NCBI GenBank assembly: GCA_902388345.1
Contig: CABMOY010000001.1
Location: 9,357 to 73,356 of the forward strand
From: an uncultured Collinsella sp.
GTDB taxonomy: Bacteria; Actinomycetota; Coriobacteriia; Coriobacteriales; Coriobacteriaceae
Length of the DNA stretch: 64,000 bases
Direction: 5' to 3'
Shown: positions 2,956 through 63,705 of the stretch, piece by piece
How the letters are laid out: every line of letters begins with the position of its first letter
How positions within the stretch are numbered: the first letter of the stretch is position 1
Position numbers and translations under genes: made by a program
Notes under the pieces: model-generated
The model's database searches: none
Told to the model about the DNA's origin: nothing
The model's input: the letters and a program-made list of their open reading frames with translations, nothing else

Positions 2956-4023
2956 ATGGCGCTTCCCATGGTTTATGGCGGTCCCGGACGATATGTTCAG
3001 GGGCCGGGTGAGCTTTCGCGTCAGGGCAGGTATTTGTCATGGTTGGGCTGCGCTGCCTATGTCTTGTTTGACCGGGGCACCGAGGATCGGCTGTGCAGGC
3101 AGATCGTCGATGGATTTCTGGATGAAGATCTAAGCGAGCCGTTCTTTAAGATTTACAACGGTCCGTGTACGGAAGATGCCGTTGTCGAAATGGCCAAGGA
3201 AGCCCGGGCCGAGTATTGCGACATGGTGGAGGGCATTGGCGGCGGCAAGATGCTCGATATCGCCAAGGCCGTTGCGTTTTATGCTGAGCTGCCGTTGTGC
3301 GTATGCCCCACGGCGGCATCGATGGATGGTCCGTGTAGCGCGATTTCGGTGCTGTATCACGAGGATGGGTCGTTCGACCGCTACCTGATGCTCGAGAAGA
3401 ATCCAGACCTGGTCGTGGTCGATACCAGCGTGGTCGCGGCGGCCCCACTGCGTATGACGGTCGCTGGTATGGGCGATGCGCTGGCAACGTACTTCGAGGC
3501 GCGTTCGTGCGCCGCGGCGCATGGCGCCAACGAGCACGGTGGCACGCCGGGACACTTGGCCCTGGTCGCGGCACGTGCCTGCTACGACACGCTCATGGAG
3601 TGTGGCGTCGCTGCCAAGCGCGATCTCAAAAAGGGCCGTACATCGCCAGCGGTTGAGCGTCTGATCGAGTGCAATATTTTGCTCTCGGGTGTCGGCTTTG
3701 AGAGTGGCGGCCTAGCGCTCGCCCATGCCATTGCCAACGGCCTGACGATTTTGCCCGAGTGCAAGGCTATGCACGGCGAGGCCGTGGCATTTGGCCTGGT
3801 GGTGCAGCTTCGTTTGGAGCGTGCGTCCGAGCTTGATCAGGTGCTCGAGTTTTGTCAGCGCGTCGGTCTGCCGACGACGCTCGCGGAGCTGGGCCTTGGC
3901 GGGATTTCCGATGCCGATCTGCAGGGTGTTGCAAATGCGGTCTTTAGAAACGAGCGCAATATGGCTAACGAACAGGCCAAGGTGACCAAACAAAAACTCG
4001 TGCAGCTCATGTGCGAGGCATAG
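2956..4023 (+). CDS. Glycerol dehydrogenase paralog (GldA family)
   Basis: GIGGGKMLDIAKAVAF motif. Colinear similarity to the preceding gene. Confidence 0.8.
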   Translation: MALPMVYGGPGRYVQGPGELSRQGRYLSWLGCAAYVLFDRGTEDRLCRQIVDGFLDEDLSEPFFKIYNGPCTEDAVVEMAKEARAEYCDMVEGIGGGKMLDIAKAVAFYAELPLCVCPTAASMDGPCSAISVLYHEDGSFDRYLMLEKNPDLVVVDTSVVAAAPLRMTVAGMGDALATYFEARSCAAAHGANEHGGTPGHLALVAARACYDTLMECGVAAKRDLKKGRTSPAVERLIECNILLSGVGFESGGLALAHAIANGLTILPECKAMHGEAVAFGLVVQLRLERASELDQVLEFCQRVGLPTTLAELGLGGISDADLQGVANAVFRNERNMANEQAKVTKQKLVQLMCEA

Positions 4024-14470: not shown

Positions 14471-16069
14471 ATGGATCAAAAGGCTTCCGTAAAGGTCCTC
14501 GTACTCGACTTTGGTGCGCAGTACGGTCAGCTCATTGCCCGTCGCGTCCGCGACCTCAACGTGTATTCCGAGATTGTCCCCTGCGACATCTCGGCCGACG
14601 AGATTCGCGAGATGAACGCCTCTGCGCTCATCCTTTCCGGCGGCCCGGCTTCTGTGTATGCCGAGGACGCTCCGTCCATCGACCCCGCCATCTTTGACCT
14701 GGGCCTTCCCGTCCTGGGCTTCTGCTACGGCCATCAGATCACGGCCGTGACGCTCGGCGGCAAGGTCGGCCACTCCGAGGTGGGCGAGTACGGTCGCGCC
14801 ACCATCACGCGCACGGCCGGCGCCAAGCTCTTTAACTCCACGCCCATGGAGCAGACCGTGTGGATGAGCCATCGCGACGCCGTTTCCGAGGTGCCCGAGG
14901 GCTTTACCGTTACCGCCAGCACCGACGTATGCCCGGTTGCCGCCATGGAGTGCGTCGAGCGCAAGATCTTTACCACGCAGTTCCACCCCGAGGTCAAGCA
15001 CTCCGAGTATGGCCAGCAGCTGCTGAGCAACTTCCTGTTTGAGATCTGCGGCCTGGAGCCCAACTGGAGCATGGACAACCTGGTCGAGACCATGACGGCC
15101 GAGTTCCGCGAGAAGGTCGGCGACGACCGCGTGATTCTGGCCCTGTCCGGTGGCGTCGACTCCTCCGTCGTGGCTGCGCTGGGCGCCCGCGCCGTGGGCA
15201 AGCAGATGACCTGCGTGTTCATCAACCACGGCCTGCTGCGCAAGGGCGAGCCCGAGCAGGTGGAGGAGGTCTTCACCAAGCAGTTCGATGTCGACTTTAT
15301 CCACGTCCACGCCGAGGACCGTTATGCCGAGCTTCTGGCCGGCGTGACCGAGCCCGAGGAGAAGCGCCGCATCATCGGTACGCAGTTCTGGAAAGAGTTC
15401 TTTGCCGTGGCGCAGCAGCTCGAGACCGATGGCAAGCCGGTCAAGTATCTGGCTCAGGGCACCATCTACCCCGACATCATCGAGTCCGGCGCGCGCAAGA
15501 CGGGCGGCAAGACGGCCACCATCAAGAGCCACCACAACCTGATCCCGTTCCCCGAGGGCGTGCATTTCGACCTTATCGAGCCGCTCGACCACTTCTTTAA
15601 GGACGAGGTCCGCGCGCTTGGTCTGGCACTAGGCCTGCCGGGTCACATCGTGTTCCGCCAGCCCTTCCCGGGCCCGGGTCTGGCCATCCGCATCATCGGC
15701 GCGGTCGACAAGGAGAAGCTCGAGATCCTCAAGAACGCCGATGCCATCGTGCGCGAGGAGCTCGACGCCTACAACCAGCGTCTGTTTGAGCAGACCGGCG
15801 AGCGCAACTCCGAGCACAGCTGCTGGCAGTACTTCGCGGTCCTGCCCGACATCAAGTCCGTCGGCGTTATGGGCGATGAGCGCACCTACCAGCGCCCGAT
15901 CATCCTGCGCGCCGTCGAGTCCAGCGATGCCATGACCGCCGACTGGGCCAAGCTGCCCTACGACGTCCTGGCCCGCATCTCGGGCCGCATCGTTGCCGAG
16001 GTCCCCGGCGCCAACCGCGTGTGCTACGACATCACGTCCAAGCCGCCGGCGACGATCGAGTGGGAATAA
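14471..16069 (+). CDS. guaA: GMP synthase, glutamine-hydrolysing (GATase plus ATP pyrophosphatase domains)
   Basis: Class I GATase Cys motif (GFCYGHQ). [10 protein letters not shown]-loop. C-terminal dimerisation domain ending TIEWE. ATG at 14471 with a GGGGGAAACC RBS. Confidence 0.95.
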   Translation: MDQKASVKVLVLDFGAQYGQLIARRVRDLNVYSEIVPCDISADEIREMNASALILSGGPASVYAEDAPSIDPAIFDLGLPVLGFCYGHQITAVTLGGKVGHSEVGEYGRATITRTAGAKLFNSTPMEQTVWMSHRDAVSEVPEGFTVTASTDVCPVAAMECVERKIFTTQFHPEVKHSEYGQQLLSNFLFEICGLEPNWSMDNLVETMTAEFREKVGDDRVILALSGGVDSSVVAALGARAVGKQMTCVFINHGLLRKGEPEQVEEVFTKQFDVDFIHVHAEDRYAELLAGVTEPEEKRRIIGTQFWKEFFAVAQQLETDGKPVKYLAQGTIYPDIIESGARKTGGKTATIKSHHNLIPFPEGVHFDLIEPLDHFFKDEVRALGLALGLPGHIVFRQPFPGPGLAIRIIGAVDKEKLEILKNADAIVREELDAYNQRLFEQTGERNSEHSCWQYFAVLPDIKSVGVMGDERTYQRPIILRAVESSDAMTADWAKLPYDVLARISGRIVAEVPGANRVCYDITSKPPATIEWE

Positions 16070-28138: not shown

Positions 28139-28699
28139 TCAAGCTTTAGACTGACTCAGCCAATCACTTCTCGTCAGGCAAGTGATCTGTTCTGTACGGA
28201 TGTCGTCCATCAGCTCACAGCAGACGTCCTTACGGGTGTGGTGCCAAATAAAGCCGCATTTTTCCTGAACGCGTTTCGATTTCTCGTTCCCGTCGAAGTA
28301 TCCGCACCAGATTTTGTCCAGTTTCAAGTCCTCGAAACCATGGCGGACGAGCTCTCGAACCGCCTCCGGTATCAGCCCCTTGCCCCAGAACGGGACGCCG
28401 ATCCAGTAGCCTATTTCTCCCTCAGTGTCCGGAATCTCCTTGTCGGACCGCGCGCCAATCATCAACCCTATGCTTCCGATGGCCCTGTTGTCTTCCTTCA
28501 GGCAAACGGCGTACGTCTCCGGCGCGGAAAACACGGTGCGGATGATTTCGGCGCTGTCGTCAACGCTCGAGTGAGGCGGCCAGCCGGCAATCGGCCCCAC
28601 CCTGTCGTCCTTCGCGTATCTGTACAGGTCCTCTGCGTCCGTTTCGGCCCATGGGCGCAGTATCAGCCGCCCGGTTGCCAGTTGTATATCCATCTCCAT
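28139..28699 (-). CDS. GNAT-family N-acetyltransferase (RimJ/RimL-like)
   Basis: Acetyl-CoA binding region GYWIGVPFWGKGLIPEAVRELVRHGF. Confidence 0.8.
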   Translation of the reverse strand: MEMDIQLATGRLILRPWAETDAEDLYRYAKDDRVGPIAGWPPHSSVDDSAEIIRTVFSAPETYAVCLKEDNRAIGSIGLMIGARSDKEIPDTEGEIGYWIGVPFWGKGLIPEAVRELVRHGFEDLKLDKIWCGYFDGNEKSKRVQEKCGFIWHHTRKDVCCELMDDIRTEQITCLTRSDWLSQSKA

Positions 28700-28895
28700 C
28701 GACTACTTTCGATTGATGCTCAGTGCCCATTGTATTCGCTACGATTAAACTCGGCACAGGGGATACTGGTTTTCCGTGCGAAAACGCTCATGCCGCTAAA
28801 TTGAGCGACCGCCTGTACTGCAGCGGGATCATCCGCCCGAGCGATCCCTTAATCCGTCGCCCGTTGCGCCAATCGGCAGAAGCCACGCGTGGACG

Positions 28896-29838
28896 CTAAT
28901 CGCTCGAGCGAATCGTCGTCGGTTTCCGTTTAAGATTTCTTTTTCCGCTATTATCCGACCCTCGGACTTCCTCGTGATAGAAGTAGTCCACGATCACCGG
29001 ATGCCCCTGGGGGACTCTGCCATAAGGCATTTCGTTGTCCACAAAGGGGCAATCGTACTTCTTGGCCATTTCCTCGGCTTTTACTTCAAGCGCTTCAAAA
29101 TAGCTACGGTTGCGCTTGTTATAGATCTCATCGTAAAGCGGTACGAGATCGGGATGTTTCTTGGCGATATAATCCAGGATCGCTTTTTTGAAACCACCCC
29201 GAAGATTGAGATTTTCGAGCCAAAACAAATCGCACCGATCCTTTACTCGCTCAAAAATCATCTCAAAATCCGTGATGCCGGGAAATACCGGGGACACGAA
29301 GCAGACCGTACGGATACCTTCGTCATACACCTGCTTCATAGCAGCGATACGACGCTCGATGCTCGACGCGGAGTCCATATCGTTCTTGAAGTTCTCATCC
29401 AGCGTGTTGATCGACCATGAAACGGTCACTCGTCCAAGCTTCTTCAGCAGATCGATATCCCGTACCACAAGATCGGACTTTGTGCAGATCAGAATATCTG
29501 CATCGCTGCCAATCAGCTGCTCCAGGAGTTTCCTGGTATTCCCGAATCGCTCCTCCTGTGGATTGTAGCCATCCGTCACAGAACCGATAACCACCCGCTG
29601 TCCAGCGTATTTCTTCGGATTCTTGATTTCCGGCCAATGCTTCACATCAAGAAAGGTGCCCCATTCCTCCTTGTGTCCGGTAAAGCGCTTCATAAAGGAG
29701 GCATAGCAATACTTGCAGGCATGCGTGCAGCCTACATAGGGATTGACCGAGTAGCCGCCCACCGGCAGGCTGGACTTGGTCATGATGTTCTTTGCTTCCA
29801 CCTCATTGATGAGGATTCCATCGATCACTTCCGCCATG
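28896..29838 (-). CDS. Radical-SAM protein of the spore-photoproduct-lyase/SplB-like (COG1533) family
   Basis: CTHACKYCYA (Cx3Cx2C) cluster motif near the N-terminus. Start taken at MAEVIDG (about 29838). It overlaps the upstream gene by 14 nt. Confidence 0.8.
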
Positions 29839-30514
29839 TTCTCTGCACCTCCAGCACTCTTTCGAATTCTTCCGGCAATTCCTGAATCATGTTTTCGTCC
29901 CCTATGACAGAGACGAGGTCTTCCTTCATAAACATTGGAATGCCAAGCGCGTGCGCCTGGTCCGTCAAAGACCATGCCCACTCCGGTTCCGTATGAACCT
30001 TCCTGCTCTGCGCCCCGGTCATGGTACCGACGACGATCCAGTTGATTCCGGAAAGGTCGACCGTACCGGGATCGTCGAATAGCGGCTCAAAAGTAACGAA
30101 GAAGTGATTTGCTTTGACGTTTTTCCGAAGGGCGTCGATACGCCACAGCTCCGCTTTCCTCGTCACCGTAACGCCGAACCATGCGTTTTCCAGGTCGGTA
30201 TCTAAATCCAGCAAATCGGGTCTCTTGGTCAGGAACAGGAACTGATGCTGTGGATTCTCATGGATCTTTGCAAATACCTCGTCTCGCCATTCCAGCTTCC
30301 ACCCGGAGAGATCGCTCATGCCGGTAAGGAGAAAGTTCTGCGGGCGTTTCTTTTCCATCATCTTGAGCTTGCTCGGGAAGAACGCAGGATCAGCGAAGTC
30401 GTCAATCATATGCCAACGTTTCACATTGTTACGGGCATAGCAATATGGACACCCCACCGTGCAGCCGATGACGATATTCATATTCTGAATCTGATTTTTG
30501 ATGCAGATGCTCAT
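29825..30514 (-). CDS. Phage Gp37/Gp68-like (DUF5131) radical-SAM-type protein
   Basis: IGCTVGCPYCYA Cx3Cx2C motif. Family recognised from the overall pattern. Its ATG overlaps the stop of the upstream sirtuin fragment (ATGA at 30511-30514). Confidence 0.6.
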   Translation of the reverse strand: MSICIKNQIQNMNIVIGCTVGCPYCYARNNVKRWHMIDDFADPAFFPSKLKMMEKKRPQNFLLTGMSDLSGWKLEWRDEVFAKIHENPQHQFLFLTKRPDLLDLDTDLENAWFGVTVTRKAELWRIDALRKNVKANHFFVTFEPLFDDPGTVDLSGINWIVVGTMTGAQSRKVHTEPEWAWSLTDQAHALGIPMFMKEDLVSVIGDENMIQELPEEFERVLEVQRTWRK

Positions 30515-30711
30515 AACGCCTGCCTACCTGCCTCTCCCGTAAACACGCAATCAGCCTCCCCCACCTTGCGGGCAAAAGCCTCGATATCTTGCTTGCAAGC
30601 AGCAGGCTCGCAATCGCTCAAATCGTATGACGTGCCGCCGTTTCGATAGACGGCCCGATGGGAAAACGATCGGCTGACAAGCCCGATGCCGAGCTTCTCG
30701 CACAGGGTCAT
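30511..30711 (-). pseudogene. 5' fragment (66 codons) of a sirtuin-like gene, paralogous to the N-terminus of the 33037..34008 gene
   Basis: MTLCEKLGIGLVSRSFSHRAVYRNGGTSYDLSD... aligns with MTLYEQLVIELTNQSFSLQAAYRSGGTPYELSD.... The similarity ends at about codon 57, and a stop follows. Confidence 0.6.
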
Positions 30712-30854
30712 CCGTGCTCCCTTTCAGCTATAAAAAACAGGTGTCTATAAACAGTATCCTTGTTGATTTTCGCAGGGGCAATGAACAAACGCGTGCACCT
30801 GTCGATAAACGAACAGCTACTGGACATTGTCAAACGACTCAGATTGGAGAGGCG

Positions 30855-31415
30855 ATGGGAGAAACCAAGATCGACCGCCGGCTGCGCTACACCCTCTCGG
30901 TCATACAGGAGGCGTTCTTCGCGCTGCTGGCCAAGGTCGGCTTCGCGAAGATGACGGTGGCGGACATCTGCCGCCGCGCCGAGATCAACCGGGGAACGTT
31001 CTATCTGCATTACGAGGATAAGTACGCGCTGCTCGATGCGCTTATCGACGAGGCATTGGCAGCGGCTCCCCCGCTTGAGGGGGTTGAATCGGCAACGCTT
31101 TGCCAGTGTCCGCCGGCAGACGACGATTATCGCCTGCTTTATTCGGACGGCGACGCATACGCTCGCGTAGCCCAGCGCGTCATAGAACGCGGAGCGGAGC
31201 AGATGGTTCCCTGGGTCATGGAGAAAACAGGGCTTTCACGCGAAGACGCCTTCCTGCTCTTCGTCCACAACGTCCAGGGCAATCTGGTCGTCAACCGCCT
31301 GCTCGGCTGGAGACGAGGCCCCGAGTTCGCCCATGCCCAGGAGCTGCTCAACGCCTATTCCGAAGGGGGCTTACTGGCGGTATCCGCTCTTCGCGATTCC
31401 GATAACCCATCGTGA
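30855..31415 (+). CDS. TetR/AcrR-family transcriptional regulator (copy 1)
   Basis: HTH region GFAKMTVADICRRAEINRGTFYLHYEDK. ATG at 30855 with a GGAGAGG RBS. The sequence upstream of that ATG within ORF 30714.. is intergenic. Confidence 0.8.
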   Translation: MGETKIDRRLRYTLSVIQEAFFALLAKVGFAKMTVADICRRAEINRGTFYLHYEDKYALLDALIDEALAAAPPLEGVESATLCQCPPADDDYRLLYSDGDAYARVAQRVIERGAEQMVPWVMEKTGLSREDAFLLFVHNVQGNLVVNRLLGWRRGPEFAHAQELLNAYSEGGLLAVSALRDSDNPS

Positions 31416-31498
31416 CCTGCGATTCAGGAATACCAGCCTCCGAGCCCTCTCGTTCGGAGGCTGTGGCTAAAACCTCATTGCGCGTCTACCGCTCCGCG

Positions 31499-32347
31499 CT
31501 ACTCGTCGCCTGCCTGCGCCGCCGAGAGCAGTGCGCTCAAATCGGCCTGGATCGCCTCCGCCTTGCTCCCGAGTTGCAGCGGAGCCGAGTCGCCCGAGAT
31601 GTTTACGCTCAGCAGGTGCGCATCCGGCAGCTTCGCGGTCATGCTCCAGAACGGGAGCGTGATGATGCCGGGGGTCATCTCGCCCACGCCGAGCTCCAGC
31701 AACAGCACGTGGCTACTACCGCGCTCGCGCACGAAGCGCTCGTATCGTCCGAGGCCCTCGCGCCAAGCCACGCCCTGCAGAAACGTGTCGTCGCGCACCC
31801 ACGGTACGAGCTGCCAGCCGCAGTGCGGGCATCGGGGGACATCCTCGCTGCGGATCTCGAACCCCGCCATGCCCGCGAGCATGCGCTCGACGTAGGGGCT
31901 CGCCTCGAAGAGCTCGTCGCAGCATGGCTGCTTGCACTGAAGGTGCGCGAAGCTTCCCTGATAGTTGCAGATTCTCTCGGCGGGAAACGTCTTCTCGACC
32001 TGGGTGTCCACATTGGTGCTCAGGGTGAAGTAGTCCTTATGGCCGATGAGGGACTGCAGGTCGAGATAGAGCTGTGAGGCAGGCTCGCGCAGCATGAAGT
32101 CGATGTATCGCGCGTAGTAGGCCCATTGCTGCTCGAGGCTGGGGTAGAGGTAGTAGAAGCCGTCGAAAAGGCTCTTGAAGCCAAAGGCTTGCTGCCAGTC
32201 CGTCATTCCGGCGCGCGCCATGCCTGCGCGGTTGTAATGGTTGAACCCGGCGGCGCTTGACATGCCCGAGCCGATGCCGACGATGATGGCGTCGGCATCG
32301 TCGATAAGGCTTCGAAGCCTATACGCTTCCCTCTCTAGAGACGGCAT
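31499..32347 (-). CDS. Sirtuin-like (SIR2-family) protein, paralog a
   Basis: IVGIGSGMSSAAG NAD-pocket Gly-rich motif. TLSTNVDTQ (TQNxD-like). Zn ribbon CKQPCC...CPHCG. Confidence 0.6.
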   Translation of the reverse strand: MPSLEREAYRLRSLIDDADAIIVGIGSGMSSAAGFNHYNRAGMARAGMTDWQQAFGFKSLFDGFYYLYPSLEQQWAYYARYIDFMLREPASQLYLDLQSLIGHKDYFTLSTNVDTQVEKTFPAERICNYQGSFAHLQCKQPCCDELFEASPYVERMLAGMAGFEIRSEDVPRCPHCGWQLVPWVRDDTFLQGVAWREGLGRYERFVRERGSSHVLLLELGVGEMTPGIITLPFWSMTAKLPDAHLLSVNISGDSAPLQLGSKAEAIQADLSALLSAAQAGDE

Positions 32348-33033
32348 TGGGCAATCTCCTCGAAAGCCGGGGCCATATCGCCGTCAACGAGAATCGTCTC
32401 GCACGATGCATCGGGCGCCATAGCCTGGCTGTAGTTGAACACGATGTAGGTGGCGTGCTCGCAGACGTTCGCGATCTGGGCGAGCATGTGCTTTATGATG
32501 CCGTTGCGCAGTCCCACGCCAAGTTCGAGGATGGCGACCCTGCCGTTGCGATGGGCTTGCACAAGGCGCTCGAGCTCCTCGAGCTGGGTCATGGCGAGGG
32601 CGTCTGGATGGGCGAGGCGCCGCTCGTCAACCGACGTGCGCGTGCTCCCCTCAGTCTCGAGCACGCGCTCCTCGTCGAACCCGGCGCGCGCGAAGTGCCC
32701 GTCGATGTTGCATGTGACCACGAAGGTGTCGGCGTGCTCCGTAAGACGCCGCAGCCCGTTCATGAGCGAGCCGGGCTCATATTCGAGATACTCCTTTTGA
32801 TGGAACCGCTCGGCCCATCGGCGTCGCACGCTGGCATCCGGGGAAGCGAGCCCCTGCAGTATGCAGCCGATGCCGTCTGCCTGGGCGAGGTCCCCGTACG
32901 CCTCTTGGAAATGAGCATCGGCGCAGAAAAGGTTGAGCCCCTCCGCCATGTCGAGTCCGTTGCTAGCGCCGATGATGACAAGATCCGCTTCGGCTAGCGC
33001 CCTGCCTATGCGAACTGCTTTCGCCGTCTCCAT
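32335..33033 (-). CDS. Sirtuin-like protein, paralog b (degenerate: no Zn-ribbon cysteines, no catalytic His)
   Basis: VIIGASNGLDMAEG Gly-rich motif and VVTCNIDGH (TQNxD-like) are present. The HGS...CxxC...CxxC region is replaced by ETEGSTRTSVDE. Confidence 0.5.
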   Translation of the reverse strand: METAKAVRIGRALAEADLVIIGASNGLDMAEGLNLFCADAHFQEAYGDLAQADGIGCILQGLASPDASVRRRWAERFHQKEYLEYEPGSLMNGLRRLTEHADTFVVTCNIDGHFARAGFDEERVLETEGSTRTSVDERRLAHPDALAMTQLEELERLVQAHRNGRVAILELGVGLRNGIIKHMLAQIANVCEHATYIVFNYSQAMAPDASCETILVDGDMAPAFEEIAQCRL

Positions 33034-33036
33034 GCG

Positions 33037-34008
33037 CTACCTCCCCAGCGTCTTGCGCACGTCGGCAAGCACGTCGGCGATGTCGGCGCGAACGGCGAGC
33101 CCCCGATCCTCGATCGCGCGGGGGAGAAACTGCGTCTTGTTGTTTACGGCGATGTAGCTGGCCTGCGGTAACTGCGCCGTGAGGGCCCAGAACGGCTCCT
33201 GGATAAACGCGGGCGTCATGCGGCCCACACCCAGCTCGAGGAAGAGGATCCTCTGCCGTGCGTGCGCGTCGAGCCATTCGGACACCTTGCGGTACTGCTC
33301 CTCGTAGAGTTCGCCCTGCAGGAAGTTGCCGTAGCCGCGAACCCAGGGGAACGCCTCTGCCCCGCAGTGCGGGCAGCGCGGCACGAGCTCTGTCGGAACC
33401 TCAAGGCCGTCTCCCATGGCCTCTACCATGTTGGAGACCGGTTCGACCGCATCCCACACCGCGTCGGTGCAACAGCGGGAGCACTGAAAGAAGCGGTGGT
33501 CGCCTTGGATCTCTGCCACTTTCTCCCAGGGATAGAGCTTCACAAACTGCGTGTCCTGGTTGGTGGTGAGCACGAAGAAATCCTTCTCGGCGAGAATGGC
33601 GTCGAGGTCCTTGTAGGGCTTGCGCAGCGGGGCGTTGAGCGTGGTGTCGAGGAAGGTGGCGAGGTATCCCCAGCGCGCCTCGGCGGTGGGCCAGCGGTAG
33701 AACGACCCCTCGAAAGCGCCCTTGAAACCGTAGCGCTCGGCGAATTTGCCGAAATGCCTGCGATAGGTTGCGTTGTCCTCGTAATAGAAGTCGCCGCCGC
33801 CCGCCGCGGAGAGCCCAGAGGCCCCGCCCACCAGCACGCAATCGGCTTCCTCGATCATGCGGGCGAAGTCCCTGATTTGCTGGTCGTAGGGCTCGGGCTC
33901 GCGGTCACTCAGCTCATAGGGCGTGCCGCCGCTGCGGTAGGCGGCCTGAAGGGAAAACGATTGGTTGGTGAGCTCGATAACGAGCTGCTCGTACAGGGTC
34001 ACTGGATA
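33037..34008 (-). CDS. Sirtuin-like (SIR2-family) protein, paralog c
   Basis: VLVGGASGLSAAGG motif. LTTNQDTQF. GDHRFFQCSRCC...CPHCG Zn ribbon. Probable GTG start at VTLYEQ (about 34008), by homology with the 30711 fragment start. Stop overlaps the start of paralog b. Confidence 0.6.
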   Translation of the reverse strand, partial: YPVTLYEQLVIELTNQSFSLQAAYRSGGTPYELSDREPEPYDQQIRDFARMIEEADCVLVGGASGLSAAGGGDFYYEDNATYRRHFGKFAERYGFKGAFEGSFYRWPTAEARWGYLATFLDTTLNAPLRKPYKDLDAILAEKDFFVLTTNQDTQFVKLYPWEKVAEIQGDHRFFQCSRCCTDAVWDAVEPVSNMVEAMGDGLEVPTELVPRCPHCGAEAFPWVRGYGNFLQGELYEEQYRKVSEWLDAHARQRILFLELGVGRMTPAFIQEPFWALTAQLPQASYIAVNNKTQFLPRAIEDRGLAVRADIADVLADVRKTLGR

Positions 34009-34145
34009 CCTTCTTTCAGCTATTATAAACAGGTGTCTATAAAAAGTATCCATGTCGATTTGCTTAAGAGCAATGAACAGCTTCGGCCTGCTGTCGATAA
34101 ACGAGCGTTTGCCGGGCATTGTCGAGCGTTGCAATTGGAGGGGTA

Positions 34146-34706
34146 ATGGAAGCGGGGAAGATCGATCGTCGCCGACGCTATACACTCTCGGTCATACGGG
34201 AGGCGTTCTTCGCGCTGCTGGCCGAGGTCGGCTTCGCGAAGATGACGGTAGCGGATATCTGCCGCCGCGCCGATATCAACCGTGGCACGTTCTATCTGCA
34301 CTACGAGGACAAGTTCGCCCTGCTCGACGCGCTTATCGACGAGGCCTTGGCGGCGGTGCCGCCGCTCGAGGGAACGGAGGCGGGTGCCCTCTGCCAGCGT
34401 CCGCCGGCAAACGATGACTATTATCTGCTCTACTCGGATGACGACGCGTACGCCCGGGTGGCACAGCGCGTCGTCGAGCGCGGCGCCGAGCAGATGATTC
34501 CCTCGATCATGGAGGAGACTGGGCTTTCGCGCGAGGACGCCTATCTGCTCTTCGTCCACAACGTCCAGGGAAATCTCGCGGTCAACCGCCTGCTCGGTTG
34601 GAGGCGAGGGCCCGAGTTTGCCCACGCTCAGGAGCTGCTCAGCGCCTATTCCGAAGGGGGCATGCGGGCGGTGTCTGCCCGCTATGATTCTCGTAGTTCA
34701 TCTTGA
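34146..34706 (+). CDS. TetR/AcrR-family transcriptional regulator (copy 2, about 85 percent identical to copy 1)
   Basis: Same HTH as copy 1 (GFAKMTVADICRRADINRGTFYLHYEDK). ATG at MEAGKIDRR. Confidence 0.8.
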   Translation: MEAGKIDRRRRYTLSVIREAFFALLAEVGFAKMTVADICRRADINRGTFYLHYEDKFALLDALIDEALAAVPPLEGTEAGALCQRPPANDDYYLLYSDDDAYARVAQRVVERGAEQMIPSIMEETGLSREDAYLLFVHNVQGNLAVNRLLGWRRGPEFAHAQELLSAYSEGGMRAVSARYDSRSSS

Positions 34707-34930: not shown

Positions 34931-35275
34931 TCAGCCCTCGTCGAGCTCCTTCAGCCGGGAGAGGCAGCGGTCCAGAAACCCGCTCCTAGCTTGCGCGGCA
35001 AGGAGTCCGTCGCAAAAGCGGTCGCCACGAACGCACCACGTGATGCATGCACGTATCAGGTCAATGTCCCCATGGTCGATGTCGCAGCTGTCTATACCTT
35101 CCGAGGTGTCGATGCTATGGCGTTCAAGCGTCTCGAAGTAGCTGGTGTCCGCGAACCCGTCCAGTCCATAGAAATCGTCGACGAAATCCTCGAGTCCGAA
35201 CGTCCCGCCCCCAAACTCGACATTCATGTTTCTGTCCGCCAGCTTGCCAGCGTACTTGGTTAGTCTTTCGAACAT
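34931..35275 (-). CDS. Small acidic protein, possibly DUF4375 (DMP19 DNA-mimic C-terminal domain-like)
   Basis: 114 aa with many Asp/Glu residues. C-terminal ITWCVRGDRFCDGLLAAQARSGFLDRCLSRLKEL block recalled as DUF4375-like, which is uncertain. Lies 10 bp downstream of the GmrSD-like gene on the same strand. Confidence 0.4.
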   Translation of the reverse strand: MFERLTKYAGKLADRNMNVEFGGGTFGLEDFVDDFYGLDGFADTSYFETLERHSIDTSEGIDSCDIDHGDIDLIRACITWCVRGDRFCDGLLAAQARSGFLDRCLSRLKELDEG

Positions 35276-35284
35276 GTTCGCTCC

Positions 35285-37020
35285 TTAGCTCAAAAGTCCG
35301 TTGTCGCCCAGGTAGTCCACGAAGGCATCGATGATCCGTGCCGTGCGAGTCGCGATGTCTATTTCGGTGAAGTCTCCCATGACTTGTGCCAGGCGCTTGA
35401 GTTCCGTGATCTTTGTTCCGGCTTTGCGCTTGCCATTGCCGTCGGTGTATCCCTCATAGTATTTGCGTTTATCGCAGAATCTGTAGTCGGCCGCGCGGAT
35501 GTTTACACGCTTCTCGAGCAGCGCCTTGTTACCCAGCGCCTCCAGGCTGGATTGATCGACGAGCGGGTCTATCTCGTTGCGCTTCTTGGCATAGATGTGC
35601 TCAATTTCGAGCGTGGTGTCTAGGTCCATGAGTGGTTGATCTGGGTCTGCGTACGCCCACCAAGTGAGTATGGACTTTGTTACAGGCCTGCCGTTGGTGA
35701 ACACGTAGGTTCGGAATCGCTCAGCAATATTTGCGCGATTGAAGTGGTGGTTAGGAAACTCCACCGGGCGGTGCTCCACGATGTTGATCATCTCGGGATA
35801 CACTGGCGAACGCAGCGCGTTCACGCCGGGTCGCTCAATGGCGTAGGCGAAAATGAATGCCGTGATCTTGTTTAGAAAGCCGTAGAGTGCCTCGTCATCG
35901 AGGACACCTTTGCTGTCGCTGTTGGCAAGGAACCAGACGCTTAGCAGATAGGTCCACATGCCGTTGGGGGCGTAGTTCAGCACGAAGAGCCTGCGGAGCA
36001 CGCGCTCGCTGAACCCTTCCTGCGCGTCGACGCGTTTCCAGAAGCCGAGCAGCGCCTCGAGATCGGCGAGCGTGGCGTCCTCCTTGAGCATGGCGTAACC
36101 ATCGGCACCGAAGAAGTCGCGCAACGATGCGGTGGTCGTGTCGCGGATGCCTTTCTTCGCGCGGCGGTAGTACATGTAGCGCGTAAATAGCTCATCGGTT
36201 GGTGTGCCGCGCATGGGCCGGAAGATAGCGTTCGCTCCCTCCTCGAGTCCCTTCCAGCGACGGATGAACTCGTCCTTGCGCCCCGTGTCGGAATAATGCT
36301 TGTAGAACTGGCTCTTGAAGATGTCGGCATCCGAGAGAGGCAACCCTCGGTCGTTTAGAGTCGAGAAGATGCGTAGCGCGGTGTCCTGCGATTCCGCTTC
36401 AATGGGCAACAGTATCACATTGTTGATGACGCGTGTGGCCATGTAGACGGTGTAGGTGGGCCACTCGCTCACCAGTTGCTCAATTTTCCTCTGGAAGAAA
36501 GCGAAGTTGCGGGCATAGGCGCTCTTCCAGCCATCGCCTACATTGCCCTCTCGTAAAATCTCGAGGAATTCATTCTTGTCGTTGTCCGATGCAACCTCGG
36601 AGTCGATCTTGAGGCGTTCCATGTCGGGCTCGTCGAACTCGTCGGTTTTCCATACACAACGGGCGATTGCCTCGCGCATCTTCACAGACTGCTTATCCTT
36701 CATGTTGGTGAACTTGTCGTAGAACGCGCGGAGCAGCAGCATGATGGTGGTGAGGCGCTGCTGGCCGTCAATGATTTCGAGTTGGCCAGAGAGGTTCTTA
36801 AAGGTGACGATGGGTCCTAGGAAGTATTCGTCGTTCTCGCTGTCGAAGCGCTCGTAGTCATCGCCCGGAAAAGCGAACGCGAATAGGTCATCCCACAGCG
36901 TTGCGCATTCGTCCTCGCCCCAGGCGTAGGGCCTCTGGTAGTCGGGGATGAGGAAGTCTGATCGCTTATCGGTGAGAAGATCGCGAATCGATCGCTGGTC
37001 GATGTTGAGCTTGGACATGA
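35285..37020 (-). CDS. GmrSD-family type IV (modification-dependent) restriction endonuclease (DUF262 ParB-like NTPase plus DUF1524 His-Me nuclease)
   Basis: IIDGQQRLTTI (DUF262 hallmark) in the N-terminal half. C-terminal EIEHIYAKK...GNKALL block typical of DUF1524. Start at MSKLNIDQRS (about 37020). The upstream extension of the ORF is not coding. Confidence 0.8.
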
Positions 37021-37838: not shown

Positions 37839-38018
37839 GGGCAAGAAGAGCGCATGGCAATCGGTGTTGGTGGAAATGCTTGCTGTCCTTACCGAGAGAT
37901 AGGGGCGCATTCCCTCAAGCGCCGTATGGAACAATTTTTAAACGCAGAAAAATAACTGAAAACAAATTAATCCGCGTTAAAATATTGTCAAACAGAAGTT
38001 AATGAGGGAAGGTTGCGT

Positions 38019-39308
38019 ATGCGTCGCAAGGCAGACGAGCTACTTAGGGAATGGCGAGACAGAGCTGATAGAAAACCTTTGCTGGTCAAAGGCGTGCGCC
38101 AGTGTGGCAAGACCTATTTGCTCAGAACGTACGCCCAGGATCTTTTCGAATCGGTTGTCTACGTTAATCTTGAGAACGACCGGTCGGCGCGAGCGGATTT
38201 TTCGGGCGGTCTTGACCCTCATTCGATTGTGCGCGCGATCGAGGCTCGTACGGGACAGCGTATCGTGCCTGGCAAAACCTTACTGTTCATTGACGAGATC
38301 CAGGCATGCGAGGAAGCGCTCACTTCCCTTAAATACTTTTGCGAAGATGCTCCCGAGTATTACGTTGCGGCTGCCGGGTCGCTTCTTGGGGTTGCCATTA
38401 ACCATCAGTCGTATTCGTTCCCCGTCGGAAAGACCGACTTGATCGAGATGACTCCACTCGATTTCGAGGAGTTTCTCTGGGCAATGGGGCACGATCAGCT
38501 GGTCGATGAGATACGCTCGTCATTCGAGTTAATGGGTCCTCTTGCGCCAAGCCTTCATGAAAAGGCGCTTAGGCTCTATCGACAGTATCTTGTTGTTGGC
38601 GGAATGCCCGAGGCGGTCCAAACGTATATCGATGATCAGTCAATCATTGATGTGGCCGAAAAGCATCGGATTATTCTCGACGGATATTCCGCCGACACCA
38701 ATAAATATGCTGATGAACGCTTGAGCGCAAAGACGCGTGCGTGCTTCGATTCCATTCCACAGCAGCTTGCCAAAGAGAATCGCAAATTTCAATACAAGGT
38801 AGTGCGAGCGGGGGGCAATGCGTCTCTCTTTGGAGATGCTCTCGACTGGCTTGTATTGTCGGGTACGGTGGCGCGCTGCAGCCTAGTCGGGCAGATCGAA
38901 AGCCCTTTAGAGGCCTTCGTTAACCCTTCTGCTTTTAAAATCTATCAGGCGGATACAGGGCTGCTCGTCTCCAAGGCCGGTGCTCAACGCGCCGATATTC
39001 TTGCCGGCATCGGCGGCACATTCATGGGTGCACTTACCGAAAACTACGTCGCCCAACAGCTTTCAGCCATGGGCTATCCGCTGCATTATTGGGCGCGAGA
39101 TAATCGTGCGGAAATCGACTTTGTAGTAGAGAAGCAGGGATGCTTGTCTGCGATTGAAGTCAAGGCGGGAGAGAACACAAGATCTCGAAGCCTGTCCTCA
39201 CTTAAAAAGACCCATCCGGGCGTACGCCTTATCAGGCTATCGACTAAGCCCTTTGGAATGAATGATGGGCTTATGTCTGTTCCACTTTATGCGGCATTTT
39301 GTCTATAG
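38019..39308 (+). CDS. AAA+ ATPase of the DUF4143 (COG1373) family
   Basis: Walker A VRQCGKTYLL. LLFIDEIQ Walker B. C-terminal DUF4143-like region. Preceded by an AT-rich promoter-like stretch at 37900-38000. Confidence 0.8.
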   Translation: MRRKADELLREWRDRADRKPLLVKGVRQCGKTYLLRTYAQDLFESVVYVNLENDRSARADFSGGLDPHSIVRAIEARTGQRIVPGKTLLFIDEIQACEEALTSLKYFCEDAPEYYVAAAGSLLGVAINHQSYSFPVGKTDLIEMTPLDFEEFLWAMGHDQLVDEIRSSFELMGPLAPSLHEKALRLYRQYLVVGGMPEAVQTYIDDQSIIDVAEKHRIILDGYSADTNKYADERLSAKTRACFDSIPQQLAKENRKFQYKVVRAGGNASLFGDALDWLVLSGTVARCSLVGQIESPLEAFVNPSAFKIYQADTGLLVSKAGAQRADILAGIGGTFMGALTENYVAQQLSAMGYPLHYWARDNRAEIDFVVEKQGCLSAIEVKAGENTRSRSLSSLKKTHPGVRLIRLSTKPFGMNDGLMSVPLYAAFCL

Positions 39309-50994: not shown

Positions 50995-51975
50995 ATGGAT
51001 CCCAACAAGCGTCCCGACGACATGGTGCGTATCACCACTCCCGAACTTGCCCAGGTGTTCATCGATGAGCAGGTCGCTGCAATCCGCGAGCAGATCGGCG
51101 ACAAGAAGGTCCTGCTGGCTCTTTCCGGCGGCGTCGACAGTTCGGTTGTCGCGGCCCTGCTCATCAAGGCCATCGGCAAGCAGCTCATTTGCGTGCATGT
51201 GAACCACGGCCTGATGCGCAAGGGTGAGAGCGAACAGGTCATCGACGTCTTCAAGAACCAGATGGACGCTAACCTGGTCTATGTGGACGCGACCGATCGC
51301 TTCCTGGATAAGCTCGTGGACGTCGAGGAGCCCGAGGCCAAGCGCAAGATCATCGGTGCCGAGTTTATCCGCGTGTTCGAGGAGGAGGCCCGCAAGGTTG
51401 GCGACGAGGTCAGTTTCCTCGCCCAGGGCACCATCTATCCCGACATTCTTGAGTCCCAAGACGGCGTGAAGGCTCACCACAACGTGGGCGGTCTGCCCGA
51501 GGATCTGCAGTTTGAGCTCTGCGAGCCCGTCAAACTGCTGTACAAGGACGAGGTCCGCGTCGTGGGTCGCGAGCTCGGCCTGCCCGAGAACATGGTCGAG
51601 CGCCAGCCGTTCCCCGGTCCCGGCCTGGGCGTCCGCTGCCTTGGTGCCATCACCCGCGACCGTCTTGAGGCGCTGCGCGAAGCCGACGCGATCGTGCGCG
51701 AGGAGATCGACAAGGCGGGTCTGACCATCTGGCAGTATTTTGCCGTCGTGCCCGACTTCCGCGCCACCGGCGTGCGCGAGGGCAAGCGCGCCTACGATTG
51801 GCCCTGTATCATCCGCTGCATCAACACCGTCGATGTCATGACCGCCGAGGTGCCTGAGCTCGACTGGGCGTTGCTCAAGCGCATTACCGCCCGCGTCACC
51901 GCCGAGGTTCCCGGCATCTGCCGCGTGTGCTACGACCTCACGCCGAAGCCCGTCGGCACGGTGGAGTGGGAGTAG
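50995..51975 (+). CDS. Stand-alone GMP synthase ATP-pyrophosphatase domain (GuaA C-terminal paralog, no GATase domain)
   Basis: [16 protein letters not shown]-loop. Colinear similarity to residues about 200-532 of the guaA product at 14471..16069, including the identical C-terminal motif VEWE. No glutamine amidotransferase domain in this ORF or nearby. Confidence 0.75.
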
Positions 51976-52007
51976 GCTTCTACTCTTTTGGGCGAATTGC
52001 ATTGACA

Positions 52008-61100: not shown

Positions 61101-61404
61101 GGAGATTGGCATCCTGCGCGCGATCGGCGCGTCAAAGCGCAACGTGGCCAACGTATTCAATGCCGAGACCTTTATCGAAGGCCTCATCGCTGGCGTCTTT
61201 GCTATTGTCGTCGTGGTGGCCGTGAGCTTTCCGGTTAATGCCTGGGCGCTTGCGGCCAAGCAGGTGCCCAACCTGATGAGCCTGCCCGTTCAAGACGCGC
61301 TGATGCTCATTGTAATTTCGGTGCTGCTGACGGTCGTTGCCGGCCTGCTGCCGGCTCGCAGCGCATCCAAGAAAGACCCTGTGGAAGCCCTACGCTCCGA
61401 ATAA
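58150..61404 (+). CDS. Fused ABC transporter ATP-binding domain plus FtsX-like permease (MacB-like)
   Basis: Walker [25 protein letters not shown] signature. Walker [13 protein letters not shown] long extracytoplasmic region. C-terminal FtsX 4-TM domain. Confidence 0.85.
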
Positions 61405-61435
61405 TGTGACAAAGGGACAGTCCCTTTGTCACATT
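61403..61435. repeat. Palindromic repeat copy 2 (AATGTGACAAAGGGACAGTCCCTTTGTCACATT), overlapping the ABC gene stop codon
   Basis: Perfect 16-bp arms around a central A. Confidence 0.8.
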
Positions 61436-63246: not shown

Positions 63247-63279
63247 GTCAATTCTGAATGTGACAAATGGACTGTTCCT
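63247..63279. repeat. Palindromic repeat copy 3 (AATGTGACAAATGGACTGTTCCTTTGTCACATC)
   Basis: Direct reading. Arms conserved, centre diverged. Confidence 0.75.
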
Positions 63280-63303
63280 TTGTCACATCGGGGACTGCGG
63301 AAT

Positions 63304-63487
63304 CGAGGTCTAATACTTTTCCCGAGAAGTGAACGAGTGAAAACGGACTCCCGAAGCATCGACACTTTTGGCGTGCAATTTCCTGCGGTTTTGCCAGTCA
63401 AATCCTGCGGTTTTGACGCCTAAAAATGTCAATGCTTCGGGGGTCCAAATACAGCCGTTCACTTCTCGGGAAAAGTATTAGACCTCG
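63304..63487. repeat. 184-bp nested inverted-repeat element (perfect 32-bp terminal inverted repeats). MITE-like or a structured RNA
   Basis: Left arm CGAGGTCTAATACTTTTCCCGAGAAGTGAACG at 63304-63335 equals the reverse complement of 63456-63487. Inner imperfect inverted repeat at 63346-63363 and 63428-63445. Tandem TCCTGCGGTTTTG at 63381 and 63403. Confidence 0.75.
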
Positions 63488-63542
63488 AAATATGGGCGGC
63501 GTTCGCGAACGGCAACTAGCTTGCGTCCGGTAGCCGGCACTT

Positions 63543-63653: not shown

Positions 63654-63685
63654 ATGTGACAAAGGGACAGTCCCTTTGTCACATT
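63654..63685. repeat. Palindromic repeat copy 4 (ATGTGACAAAGGGACAGTCCCTTTGTCACATT), about 20 bp upstream of dus
   Basis: Identical core to copy 2. Confidence 0.8.
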
Positions 63686-63705
63686 GATTTGAGAATGGAT
63701 GTTGA

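Follow-up and report, generated by a model that had tools for sequence, protein, structure and literature searches.

A class M sirtuin triad beside a TetR regulator in Collinsella: a probable NAD-consuming ADP-ribosylation module and a radical SAM cassette in the stump of a second module

The stretch of DNA analysed here (64,000 nucleotides, hereafter the window) comes from an uncultured Collinsella sp. (GenBank assembly GCA_902388345.1, contig CABMOY010000001.1, positions 9,357 to 73,356 of the forward strand) and carries three sirtuin-like genes flanked by two direct copies of a 0.85–0.9-kb unit, 3291 bp apart. Each copy holds the 5' end of a sirtuin gene, a 143-bp intergenic region and a divergently oriented TetR gene. 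On the copy 2 side, the resident TetR-family regulator TetR2 (34146..34706, plus strand, 186 amino acids (aa), PF00440 at 2e-11) faces away from sirC across intergenic control region 2 (34003..34145, 143 bp). The minus strand then carries sirC (33037..34002, 321 aa, with a GTG start and an N-terminal extension of ~40 residues), sirB (32335..33033, 232 aa) and sirA (31499..32347, 282 aa), whose products C, B and A we class respectively as type C (SirTM-like), a divergent sirtuin of type B, and type A (SirTM-like). TetR2 is 91% identical at the DNA level to its counterpart in strain L007, a single-module strain, and the gene call is also 186 aa in L001. An earlier annotation made without database searches (the sequence-only reading) had the sirtuin genes overlapping one another, which is correct for sirB and sirA (13 nt, read from the sequence) and incorrect for sirC and sirB, which are separated by a 3-nt spacer.

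The direct copies bracketing the sirtuin genes, as first described, were recovered by a repeat search, BLAST and MAFFT alike. At an offset of 3291–3292 the repeat search resolved ungapped blocks of 71% (30530-30710/33821-34001), 77% (30721-30836/34013-34128) and 82% identity (30843-31142/34134-34433); BLAST of the copies (30544-31387 vs 33835-34678) gave 79.1% over 845 bp, and the MAFFT alignment a mean column identity of 84%. The homologous stretch begins at ~30527-30544, and its other limit coincides exactly with the stop codons of the TetR genes (31415 and 34706). The two TetR products, previously called near-identical, share 82.8% of their amino acids, with a synonymous divergence (dS) of 0.72 and a nonsynonymous to synonymous ratio (dN/dS) of 0.13. 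A mis-joined or expanded repeat in the assembly would be the trivial explanation of such a layout, and its probability is next to nil. The copies are just 79% identical, so a collapsed or expanded repeat cannot be their source. The structure occurs in 34 Collinsella species-level genome loci and in metagenome contigs, from different assemblers and with cultured isolates included. The scan, with one genome per species, covered ~70 Collinsella or Coriobacteriaceae loci, cultured isolates among them; the layout recurs in 33 of the 60 informative Collinsella loci, isolates included, and is therefore no artefact. The window is moreover 100% identical to NCBI GCA_900765395.1 across the 20.8 kb compared, 17 contigs from independent samples carry the exact A protein in identical gene order, and isolate genomes such as Collinsella sp. 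OM04-5 show the same layout. The source is thus a Collinsella of the human gut. On the combined grounds of copy identity and recurrence in independent assemblies and isolates, the artefact was rejected.

Sequence and fold alike place A, B and C in the class M (SirTM) branch of the sirtuins. In phmmer searches against PDB sequences all three had Streptococcus pyogenes SirTM (5a3a) as best match (A 2.3e-35, C 1.5e-37, B 7.4e-9), followed for A (E = 2.4e-17) and C (E = 8.6e-20) by the macrodomain-fused SirTM 8rsn. The AlphaFold2 model of C (predicted local distance difference test score, pLDDT, 92.3; predicted template modelling score, pTM, 0.90) placed 5a3a first in Foldseek (E = 2e-25, TM 0.86, root-mean-square deviation 2.7 Å), with canonical sirtuins reaching merely ~1e-11, and the model of B (pLDDT 82.0, pTM 0.82) had the same top PDB match at E = 2e-12. 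The initial assignment of sirtuin-fold proteins beside a divergent TetR regulator is thereby borne out, with 5a3a as best match in sequence and fold and PF00440 in the regulators. The checks proposed at that time divided: Pfam profiles returned nothing for A, B or C, while structure prediction gave the SirTM fold for B and C.

Alignment to the SirTM columns reveals no catalytic His in any of the three proteins. At the column of Q137 in the S. pyogenes enzyme (SpySirTM), A has NYQGS and C has EIQGD (Gln-Gly), and B has ETEGS (Glu-Gly). The N118 column is Asn throughout (STNVD in A, TCNID in B, TTNQD in C), and the R192 column is Arg in A and C (PWVR), with no Arg in B. The CxxC...CPxCG zinc ribbon is kept in A and C and missing from the B of the window. 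The His that the sequence-only reading had placed in A and C is thus Gln-Gly at that column, as in class M. The same reading had B losing both His and ribbon; the ribbon is indeed absent, in this lineage only, whereas absence of the His is common to all three. According to Rack 2015, class M is defined by Gln-Gly in place of the catalytic His-Gly, requires N118, Q137 and R192 for catalysis and is linked to a Zn-macrodomain (PMC4518038). Since the SirTM trio of Asn, Gln-Gly and Arg is kept together with the zinc ribbon, A and C are predicted to be NAD-dependent ADP-ribosyltransferases and not deacylases.

It could be argued that these are ordinary NAD-dependent protein deacylases with a CobB-like housekeeping role: some homologues are publicly named ‘NAD-dependent protein deacetylase, SIR2 family’, and NCBIfam deacylase models do match the sirtuins below threshold (E = 4e-4, 19 bits vs a cutoff of 243). 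We consider this very improbable. The catalytic His is replaced by Gln in A and C or by Glu in B, the scores fall far under the family cutoffs, and Gln-bearing SirTMs are without deacylase activity, their Q137H mutant being dead (PMC4518038). The canonical deacylase was therefore rejected on the missing His and the sub-cutoff scores, and the deacylation pathway offered earlier as one of three possible functions is unlikely for want of that residue.

B stands apart from the other two paralogues as a separate, widespread clade. An exhaustive phmmer search with B gave 360 cluster representatives at E <= 1e-3, 48 of which were retrieved and aligned with the proteins from our loci (64 sequences in total). 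Glu occupies the Q137 column in 40 of the 64, in 38 of these as E-x-E-G. All 40 keep the Asn and have lost the Arg, and 12 are without any CxxC motif, whereas the sequences of QG type carry Arg. A rough neighbour-joining tree resolved four clades, namely B, A, C and canonical SirTM-like. B orthologues elsewhere retain the zinc ribbon, and the tree suggests that the ribbon was lost independently at least two or three times within B. Two natural B-C fusions (P0373, 688 aa; P0382, 509 aa) join an N-terminal Glu-type B to a C-terminal C-type domain with QG and Arg. Purifying selection acts on all three genes between the window and L007 (dN/dS of 0.14 for sirC, 0.21 for sirB and 0.24 for sirA), and by its value sirB is no decaying pseudogene. 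A further protein in the set, P0389, appears to be a B/C chimera inside a single domain.

The triad is conserved well beyond this contig. All-against-all comparison of neighbouring proteins resolved three orthogroups, with identities between Collinsella and Clostridia of 45-62% for C, 48-52% for A and 31-33% for B. Gene order is C-B-A in Collinsella, in one Eggerthellaceae metagenome-assembled genome (MAG) and in one Atopobium MAG; a TetR gene lies upstream in Collinsella and in the Eggerthellaceae MAG, and the Atopobium contig (L078) ends inside sirC. The eight Firmicutes loci have the order C-A-B where complete (L096 is cut and L099 rearranged), and all eight carry a divergent single-Cys Rrf2 regulator. 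Directly after the triad in four loci (L013, L014, L015 and L098) come a PncA-type isochorismatase, a nicotinate phosphoribosyltransferase (PncB) and an NAD synthase (NadE), at L013:8325-11103 and L098:9712-12059 for example. Together PncA, PncB and NadE constitute the route by which nicotinamide is recycled. Triad and salvage genes would form one operon in these four loci, and because the salvage genes directly follow the triad, they are good circumstantial evidence that its predicted enzymes cleave NAD at appreciable flux.

Apart from the regulator, no conserved fourth partner was found among the neighbours of distant triads, which are variable genes only. An FMN reductase gene directly adjoins TetR2 in 34 of 61 loci, and the remaining variable neighbours include HxlR, cupin, CMD, NmrA-like and flavodoxin genes. 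Canonical SirTM operons have been connected with the oxidative stress response and with flavin oxidoreductases (PMC4518038, PMC11490716). A link of the triad to redox or electrophile stress is plausible but weak.

In the window, TetR2 and the FMN reductase are separated by an insertion of a GmrSD/DUF262 gene (35285-37018, minus strand) and a DUF6508 gene (34931-35275). The first encodes a nuclease with a PADLOC match to HEC-06/Orf5/SspE-like at 1e-37, and a DUF4143 ATPase is also close by. These neighbours raise the question of whether the triad is itself an anti-phage, NAD-depleting defence in the manner of ThsA, DSR or SIR2-HerA, and the first radical SAM protein of copy 1 adds matches at ~1e-30 to two PADLOC phage-defence candidates, PDC-M41B and PDC-M30B. 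Defence is improbable all the same. PADLOC yielded nothing for A, B or C at E <= 0.1, and the proteins lie in the SirTM branch, not in the SIR2_2 branch of the defence sirtuins (PMC12700824). The GmrSD/DUF6508 pair is immediately beside TetR2 in just 3 of 61 Collinsella loci, the others having HxlR and cupin genes or nothing there, and looks like a small variable defence islet. The triad, for its part, holds a conserved chromosomal position over many Collinsella species, is under purifying selection and has a repressor of the metabolite-sensing type. A defence-type NADase, the third of the functions suggested earlier, finds no PADLOC match and does not suit a conserved chromosomal operon under purifying selection; with the SirTM branching it was rejected.

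The intergenic regions point to shared control of the two copies. We aligned 96 such regions and then scanned the 64-kb window for the motif obtained. Conserved blocks are common to both copy types across the 96 regions, and TGTCKATAAAC has three exact matches in the window against 0.04 expected, or four at <=1 mismatch. Each intergenic region contains two of the four, at a spacing of 58 bp, and none lies outside; as candidate operator sites they occupy 34034-34044 and 34092-34102 in region 2 and 30742-30752 and 30800-30810 in region 1 (30712..30854, 143 bp). One site is flanked by the probable -35 and -10 elements of the promoter of sirC (or of the stump). The motifs are no clean palindromes, and scans of the locus for promoters, terminators and inverted repeats gave no excess over shuffles and no clean palindromic operator. 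The helix-turn-helix (HTH) domains of TetR1 and TetR2 show a single difference in the recognition region. The sirtuin operon and the radical SAM pair of copy 1 probably answer to the same predicted operators and to similar ligands. The arrangement resembles the TetR/TetA and QacR/QacA operons in that a regulator with a TetR_N HTH and its presumed target are divergently transcribed from either side of a short intergenic region containing repeated motifs; it differs from them in its target, which is the sirtuin operon for copy 2 and the radical SAM pair for copy 1.

Regulators of the TetR family typically sense the substrate of the operon divergent from them. The triad might accordingly ADP-ribosylate a small molecule (xenobiotic, antibiotic or metabolite) that is sensed by TetR or Rrf2, as a drug-inducible detoxification. 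Besides this habit of the regulators, the operon encodes no protein target, and its neighbours (FMN reductase, HxlR, cupin, NmrA-like) are of detoxification type. We nevertheless hold the small-molecule function to be decidedly unlikely: a simple transferase needs no three paralogous subunits, and the SirTMs, as sole characterised relatives, modify a protein (PMC4518038).

Copy 1 has a different downstream content. TetR1 (30855..31415, plus strand, 186 aa, PF00440 at 8e-11), the second TetR-family regulator, is convergent with sirA across an 83-bp spacer (31416..31498) with a GC-rich hairpin (CAGCCTCCGA...TCGGAGGCTG). This spacer is the novel junction of the second module; it has no match in the flank that follows sirA in single-module genomes or in the one that follows TetR2. 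Divergent from TetR1 lies a 66-codon open reading frame (ORF; 30511..30711, minus strand), the sirC' stump, which the sequence-only reading had cut after about 57 conserved codons; about 61 of its codons are in fact homologous to the N-terminus of sirC (54% aa identity), and the remaining 5 are junction codons. As first noticed, the stop codon of the stump overlaps the start of a radical SAM gene, ATGA at 30511-30514 being common to both, and this gene overlaps a second one by 13 nt, read from the sequence. The two are rSAM A (29825..30514, minus strand, DUF5131), which matches TIGR04471 (1.9e-123, 410 bits vs a cutoff of 355) and PF07505 (4e-32), and the SplB-like rSAM B (28896..29837, minus strand), which matches TIGR04470 (9.4e-180, 596 bits vs 410). 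By these profile scores they are proteins A and B of the NCBIfam ‘radical SAM mobile pair’. No paper on the radical SAM mobile pair, or on TIGR04470 or TIGR04471, turned up in the literature searched.

Comparison with other cassettes delimits the insertion. In Lachnospira eligens (NC_012780) the cassette has 87.8% DNA identity to the window over 28934-30514, ending at the ATG of rSAM A. The junction between stump and cassette is accordingly placed at 30515..30527, L. eligens homology ending at 30514 and copy 2 homology beginning at ~30527-30544. The GC content of the radical SAM block is 0.49-0.53 against 0.60-0.66 for the sirtuin genes. The earlier proposal, that recombination had brought a low-GC block into one copy, holds true and can be specified: the block is the known mobile pair cassette, whose homology to L. 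eligens stops at the rSAM A ATG. In the L. eligens and Selenomonas cassettes a MarR gene overlaps the start of rSAM A, in L. eligens via the same ATGA. The window copy is like them in gene order, in the 13-nt overlap and in having an upstream ORF that overlaps the start of A via ATGA; it is unlike them in being without MarR, in whose position lie the sirC' stump and TetR1, with a promoter predicted to be under TetR control. The isolate L031 matches the window at 96.7% from 34721 to 28701, stopping at the ATG of the GNAT acetyltransferase gene (28139..28699, minus strand, PF13302 at 5e-31), so that the cassette has an extent common to Collinsella genomes of 28701..30514 on the minus strand. In L031 a sirA' remnant is joined to the same downstream flank as sirA in the single-module genome L025.

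The stump aligns over its full length in 34 of the 34 genomes carrying it, and among these genomes TetR1 always occurs with the fragment and the radical SAM pair. Eight of the 34 have a broken TetR1, with an internal deletion of ~265 bp (L027, L032, L041, L050 and L062) or split matches (L044, L094 and L095), alongside an intact stump and an intact radical SAM pair. Expression of the pair in these strains could be constitutive, or it could be controlled by TetR2 in trans. Selection on the stump was not significant (dN/dS 0.40 against sirC and 0.35 for the same region between orthologues; ~3 independent TetR1 disruptions). About 2 kb from the canonical MarR-rSAM A-rSAM B genes of L. eligens (L017:7685-8425) we observed genes for a macrodomain O-acetyl-ADP-ribose deacetylase and a NUDIX hydrolase, enzymes that act on sirtuin or ADP-ribose products; their proximity may be coincidental.

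The sequence-only reading described a duplicated module of ~0.9 kb. We find that copy 1 (30511-31415) is no recent local duplicate of that size but the stump of a second, older TetR-sirC-sirB-sirA module. L007, with its single TetR-C-B-A module, has 91% DNA identity to 31513-34680 of the window and 78.5% to copy 1; being closer to copy 2, it marks copy 2 as the resident copy. The dS of 0.72 for the TetR pair and of 0.74 for the stump vs sirC (dN/dS 0.40) compares with ~0.25 between Collinsella orthologues, and the copies are therefore old. In the 60 informative Collinsella loci, a single module is present in 27, and TetR1, the 66-codon stump and rSAM A/B follow sirA in 33. A truncated sirA' (residues 52-282) comes after the cassette, on the native downstream flank, in 25 of these 33, and a GNAT gene comes after it in 6, the window included. 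We postulate that the cassette, with loss of its MarR gene, replaced the second module from about codon 62 of sirC' through about codon 51 of sirA', and that the sirA' remnant downstream would later have been swapped for the GNAT gene in this strain. The radical SAM pair would now lie behind the TetR1-controlled sirC' promoter, with the 66-codon stump acting as a translationally coupled leader for rSAM A through the ATGA overlap.

Taken together, our reading, to which we assign a probability of about 0.62, is that TetR2-sirC-sirB-sirA is a ligand-induced, NAD-consuming ADP-ribosylation module and that copy 1 is the stump of a second such module hosting a radical SAM cassette. An ADP-ribosylating or NAD-consuming module, the first of the functions suggested earlier, is also the best fit to the evidence among those three. 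In the resident unit (31499-34706), TetR2 is divergent from a tight sirC-sirB-sirA operon and would sit on the two TGTC(T/G)ATAAA(C/A) sites of the 143-bp intergenic region until released by a small ligand. On induction C, B and A would be made together, probably as a hetero-oligomer, and the triad would use up NAD, with release of nicotinamide, to ADP-ribosylate a target whose gene lies elsewhere. The B-C fusions and the tight gene coupling suggest that the subunits work together.

A more specific version, which we hold tentatively and judge unlikely on balance, is that the ligand-induced A-B-C hetero-oligomer gains through Glu-type B a chemistry not known for sirtuins, for example Glu catalysis like that of ADP-ribosyltransferases (ARTs), a second transfer step or a built-in reversal replacing the macrodomain. 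If true, it would amount to a new ADP-ribosylation signalling pathway with targets beyond GcvH-L in gut anaerobes that are abundant (Collinsella and many Clostridia).

Several observations weigh against the reading of an ADP-ribosylation module with the stump of a second one. First, Pfam gave no match for A, B, C or the stump at E <= 0.1. Second, no Macro, GCV_H or BPL_LplA_LipB Pfam domain was found within 6-10 kb in loci L001-L022; a tblastn search with one MacroD-type query against 11 diverse loci likewise gave no match. With no target, macrodomain, GcvH-L or LplA2 nearby, the known SirTM pathway is not simply transferable. Third, B could be active with Glu, or it could be a pseudoenzyme or scaffold. 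Fourth, the heteromer, probable as we take it to be, rests on operon tightness and just two fusion proteins, and the stress link is weak in resting on variable neighbours. Lastly, DNA identity to the resident sirA is 93-94% for sirA', against 79% to copy 2 for TetR1 and the stump; to account for this mismatch, a simple tandem duplication in one step would need recombination or gene conversion afterwards.

This mismatch (sirA' 94% identical to the resident gene, TetR1 and stump 79% to copy 2) would be expected had the TetR1-stump-rSAM A/B unit been assembled in another Coriobacteriia lineage and imported ready-made via recombination within sirA. A Campbell-like event, or a double crossover with overlapping arms, would then have made the sirA/sirA'(52-282) repeat with no in-situ duplication. 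We regard import as a serious contender, somewhat short of an even chance. The cargo is 94-100% conserved across genomes with more divergent native modules. L102 (L102:3962-6369) has a TetR gene 90% identical to TetR1, a 21-codon leader containing the first ~12 codons of sirC' and the radical SAM pair, with no sirtuin module nearby; the TetR-leader-rSAM unit therefore exists alone, with a different sirC' breakpoint. In L103 and L104 a TetR 86% identical to TetR1 lies beside an intact triad in another genomic context. On the other hand, the 83-bp sirA-TetR1 spacer implies that a donor already had sirA next to TetR, itself a tandem-module arrangement, and the loci sampled included no donor whose second module is intact and of TetR1 type. 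Relatives of TetR1 at 86-97% identity belong to the same chimeric cassette, to a triad with the 86% TetR or to a cassette without triad, and none of the TetR1-relative loci looked up comes from a genome with two intact modules. In-situ duplication, on which our preferred history is built, and import agree on the identity of the stump.

The relation of the triad to known systems is close in enzyme class and distant in genetic setting. It is like SirTM (PDB 5a3a-c) in that all three paralogues match this enzyme best in both sequence and fold, in the Asn/Gln-Gly/Arg trio, zinc ribbon and absence of catalytic His shared by A and C, in the predicted NAD-dependent mono-ADP-ribosylation with release of nicotinamide, and in a loose association with flavin oxidoreductase genes. 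It is unlike SirTM in that the locus has no Zn-macrodomain, GcvH-L or LplA2, in having three paralogues instead of one, in its dedicated TetR or Rrf2 regulator, in a B clade that has Glu in the place of Gln, lacks the Arg and often lacks the zinc ribbon as well, and in the separation of the A and C clades from the canonical SirTM-like clade in the rough tree. Mfs1 (PDB 8rsn; PMC11490716) is a fungal fusion of SirTM to its Zn-macrodomain eraser, whereas the fusions found here are of sirtuin to sirtuin (B-C) only. The anti-phage SIR2 NADases (ThsA, DSR1/2, SIR2-HerA) have in common with the triad the sirtuin fold and NAD consumption, the latter a prediction here, and differ in belonging to the SIR2_2 subfamily and in being usually fused to or paired with sensor domains.

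In published work GcvH-L is the sole known SirTM substrate, and SirTMs are described only together with a Zn-macrodomain (PMC11490716). The forms reported in the literature we searched are Zn-macrodomain pairs, extended GcvH-L/LplA operons and fusions, with no description of macrodomain-less triads or of the Glu-type clade; searches for sirtuin with Collinsella and for SirTM with Rrf2 found nothing relevant. The three proteins are members of the SirTM branch by sequence and fold, A and C by catalytic residues too; the triad departs from the class in the macrodomain linkage and B departs from it in the Gln and the Arg. The statement of the sequence-only reading that this is not a described system is accordingly too broad for the proteins, which form part of a described subfamily, and stands for the macrodomain-less three-paralogue operon: that operon is what is undescribed, the enzyme class being already known. 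The duplication with its radical SAM genes is a recombination scar with regulator capture, of evolutionary interest but not a new system. The triad could show which other targets SirTMs have, by what means the modification is undone or controlled and if sirtuins can act as heteromers, in an operon present in Collinsella, a very common genus of the human gut, and in many Clostridia. The hijacked copy 1 is a clean natural regulator swap, in which a mobile radical SAM pair traded MarR for TetR. The TetR now over the pair probably responds to the signal that also governs the sirtuin operon, which would offer a handle on the timing of radical SAM pair expression.

A few further features of the window lie apart from these subjects. 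A tRNA scan and Rfam at gathering threshold returned nothing over positions 1-64000. Between the FMN reductase and parC lies an AAA_14/DUF4143 ATPase gene (38013-39308); in other strains this slot holds a 364-aa protein without a Pfam match, and the slot is thus variable too. Two GMP-synthase-like paralogues (GATase/NAD_synthase/GMP_synt_C; 14491-16068 and 51083-51978) share ~63% DNA identity. Near the end of the window, a 33-nt palindromic element occurs three times (61403-61435, 63257-63289 and 63654-63686), together with a self-complementary stretch of 186 bp at 63303-63488 (79% identity).

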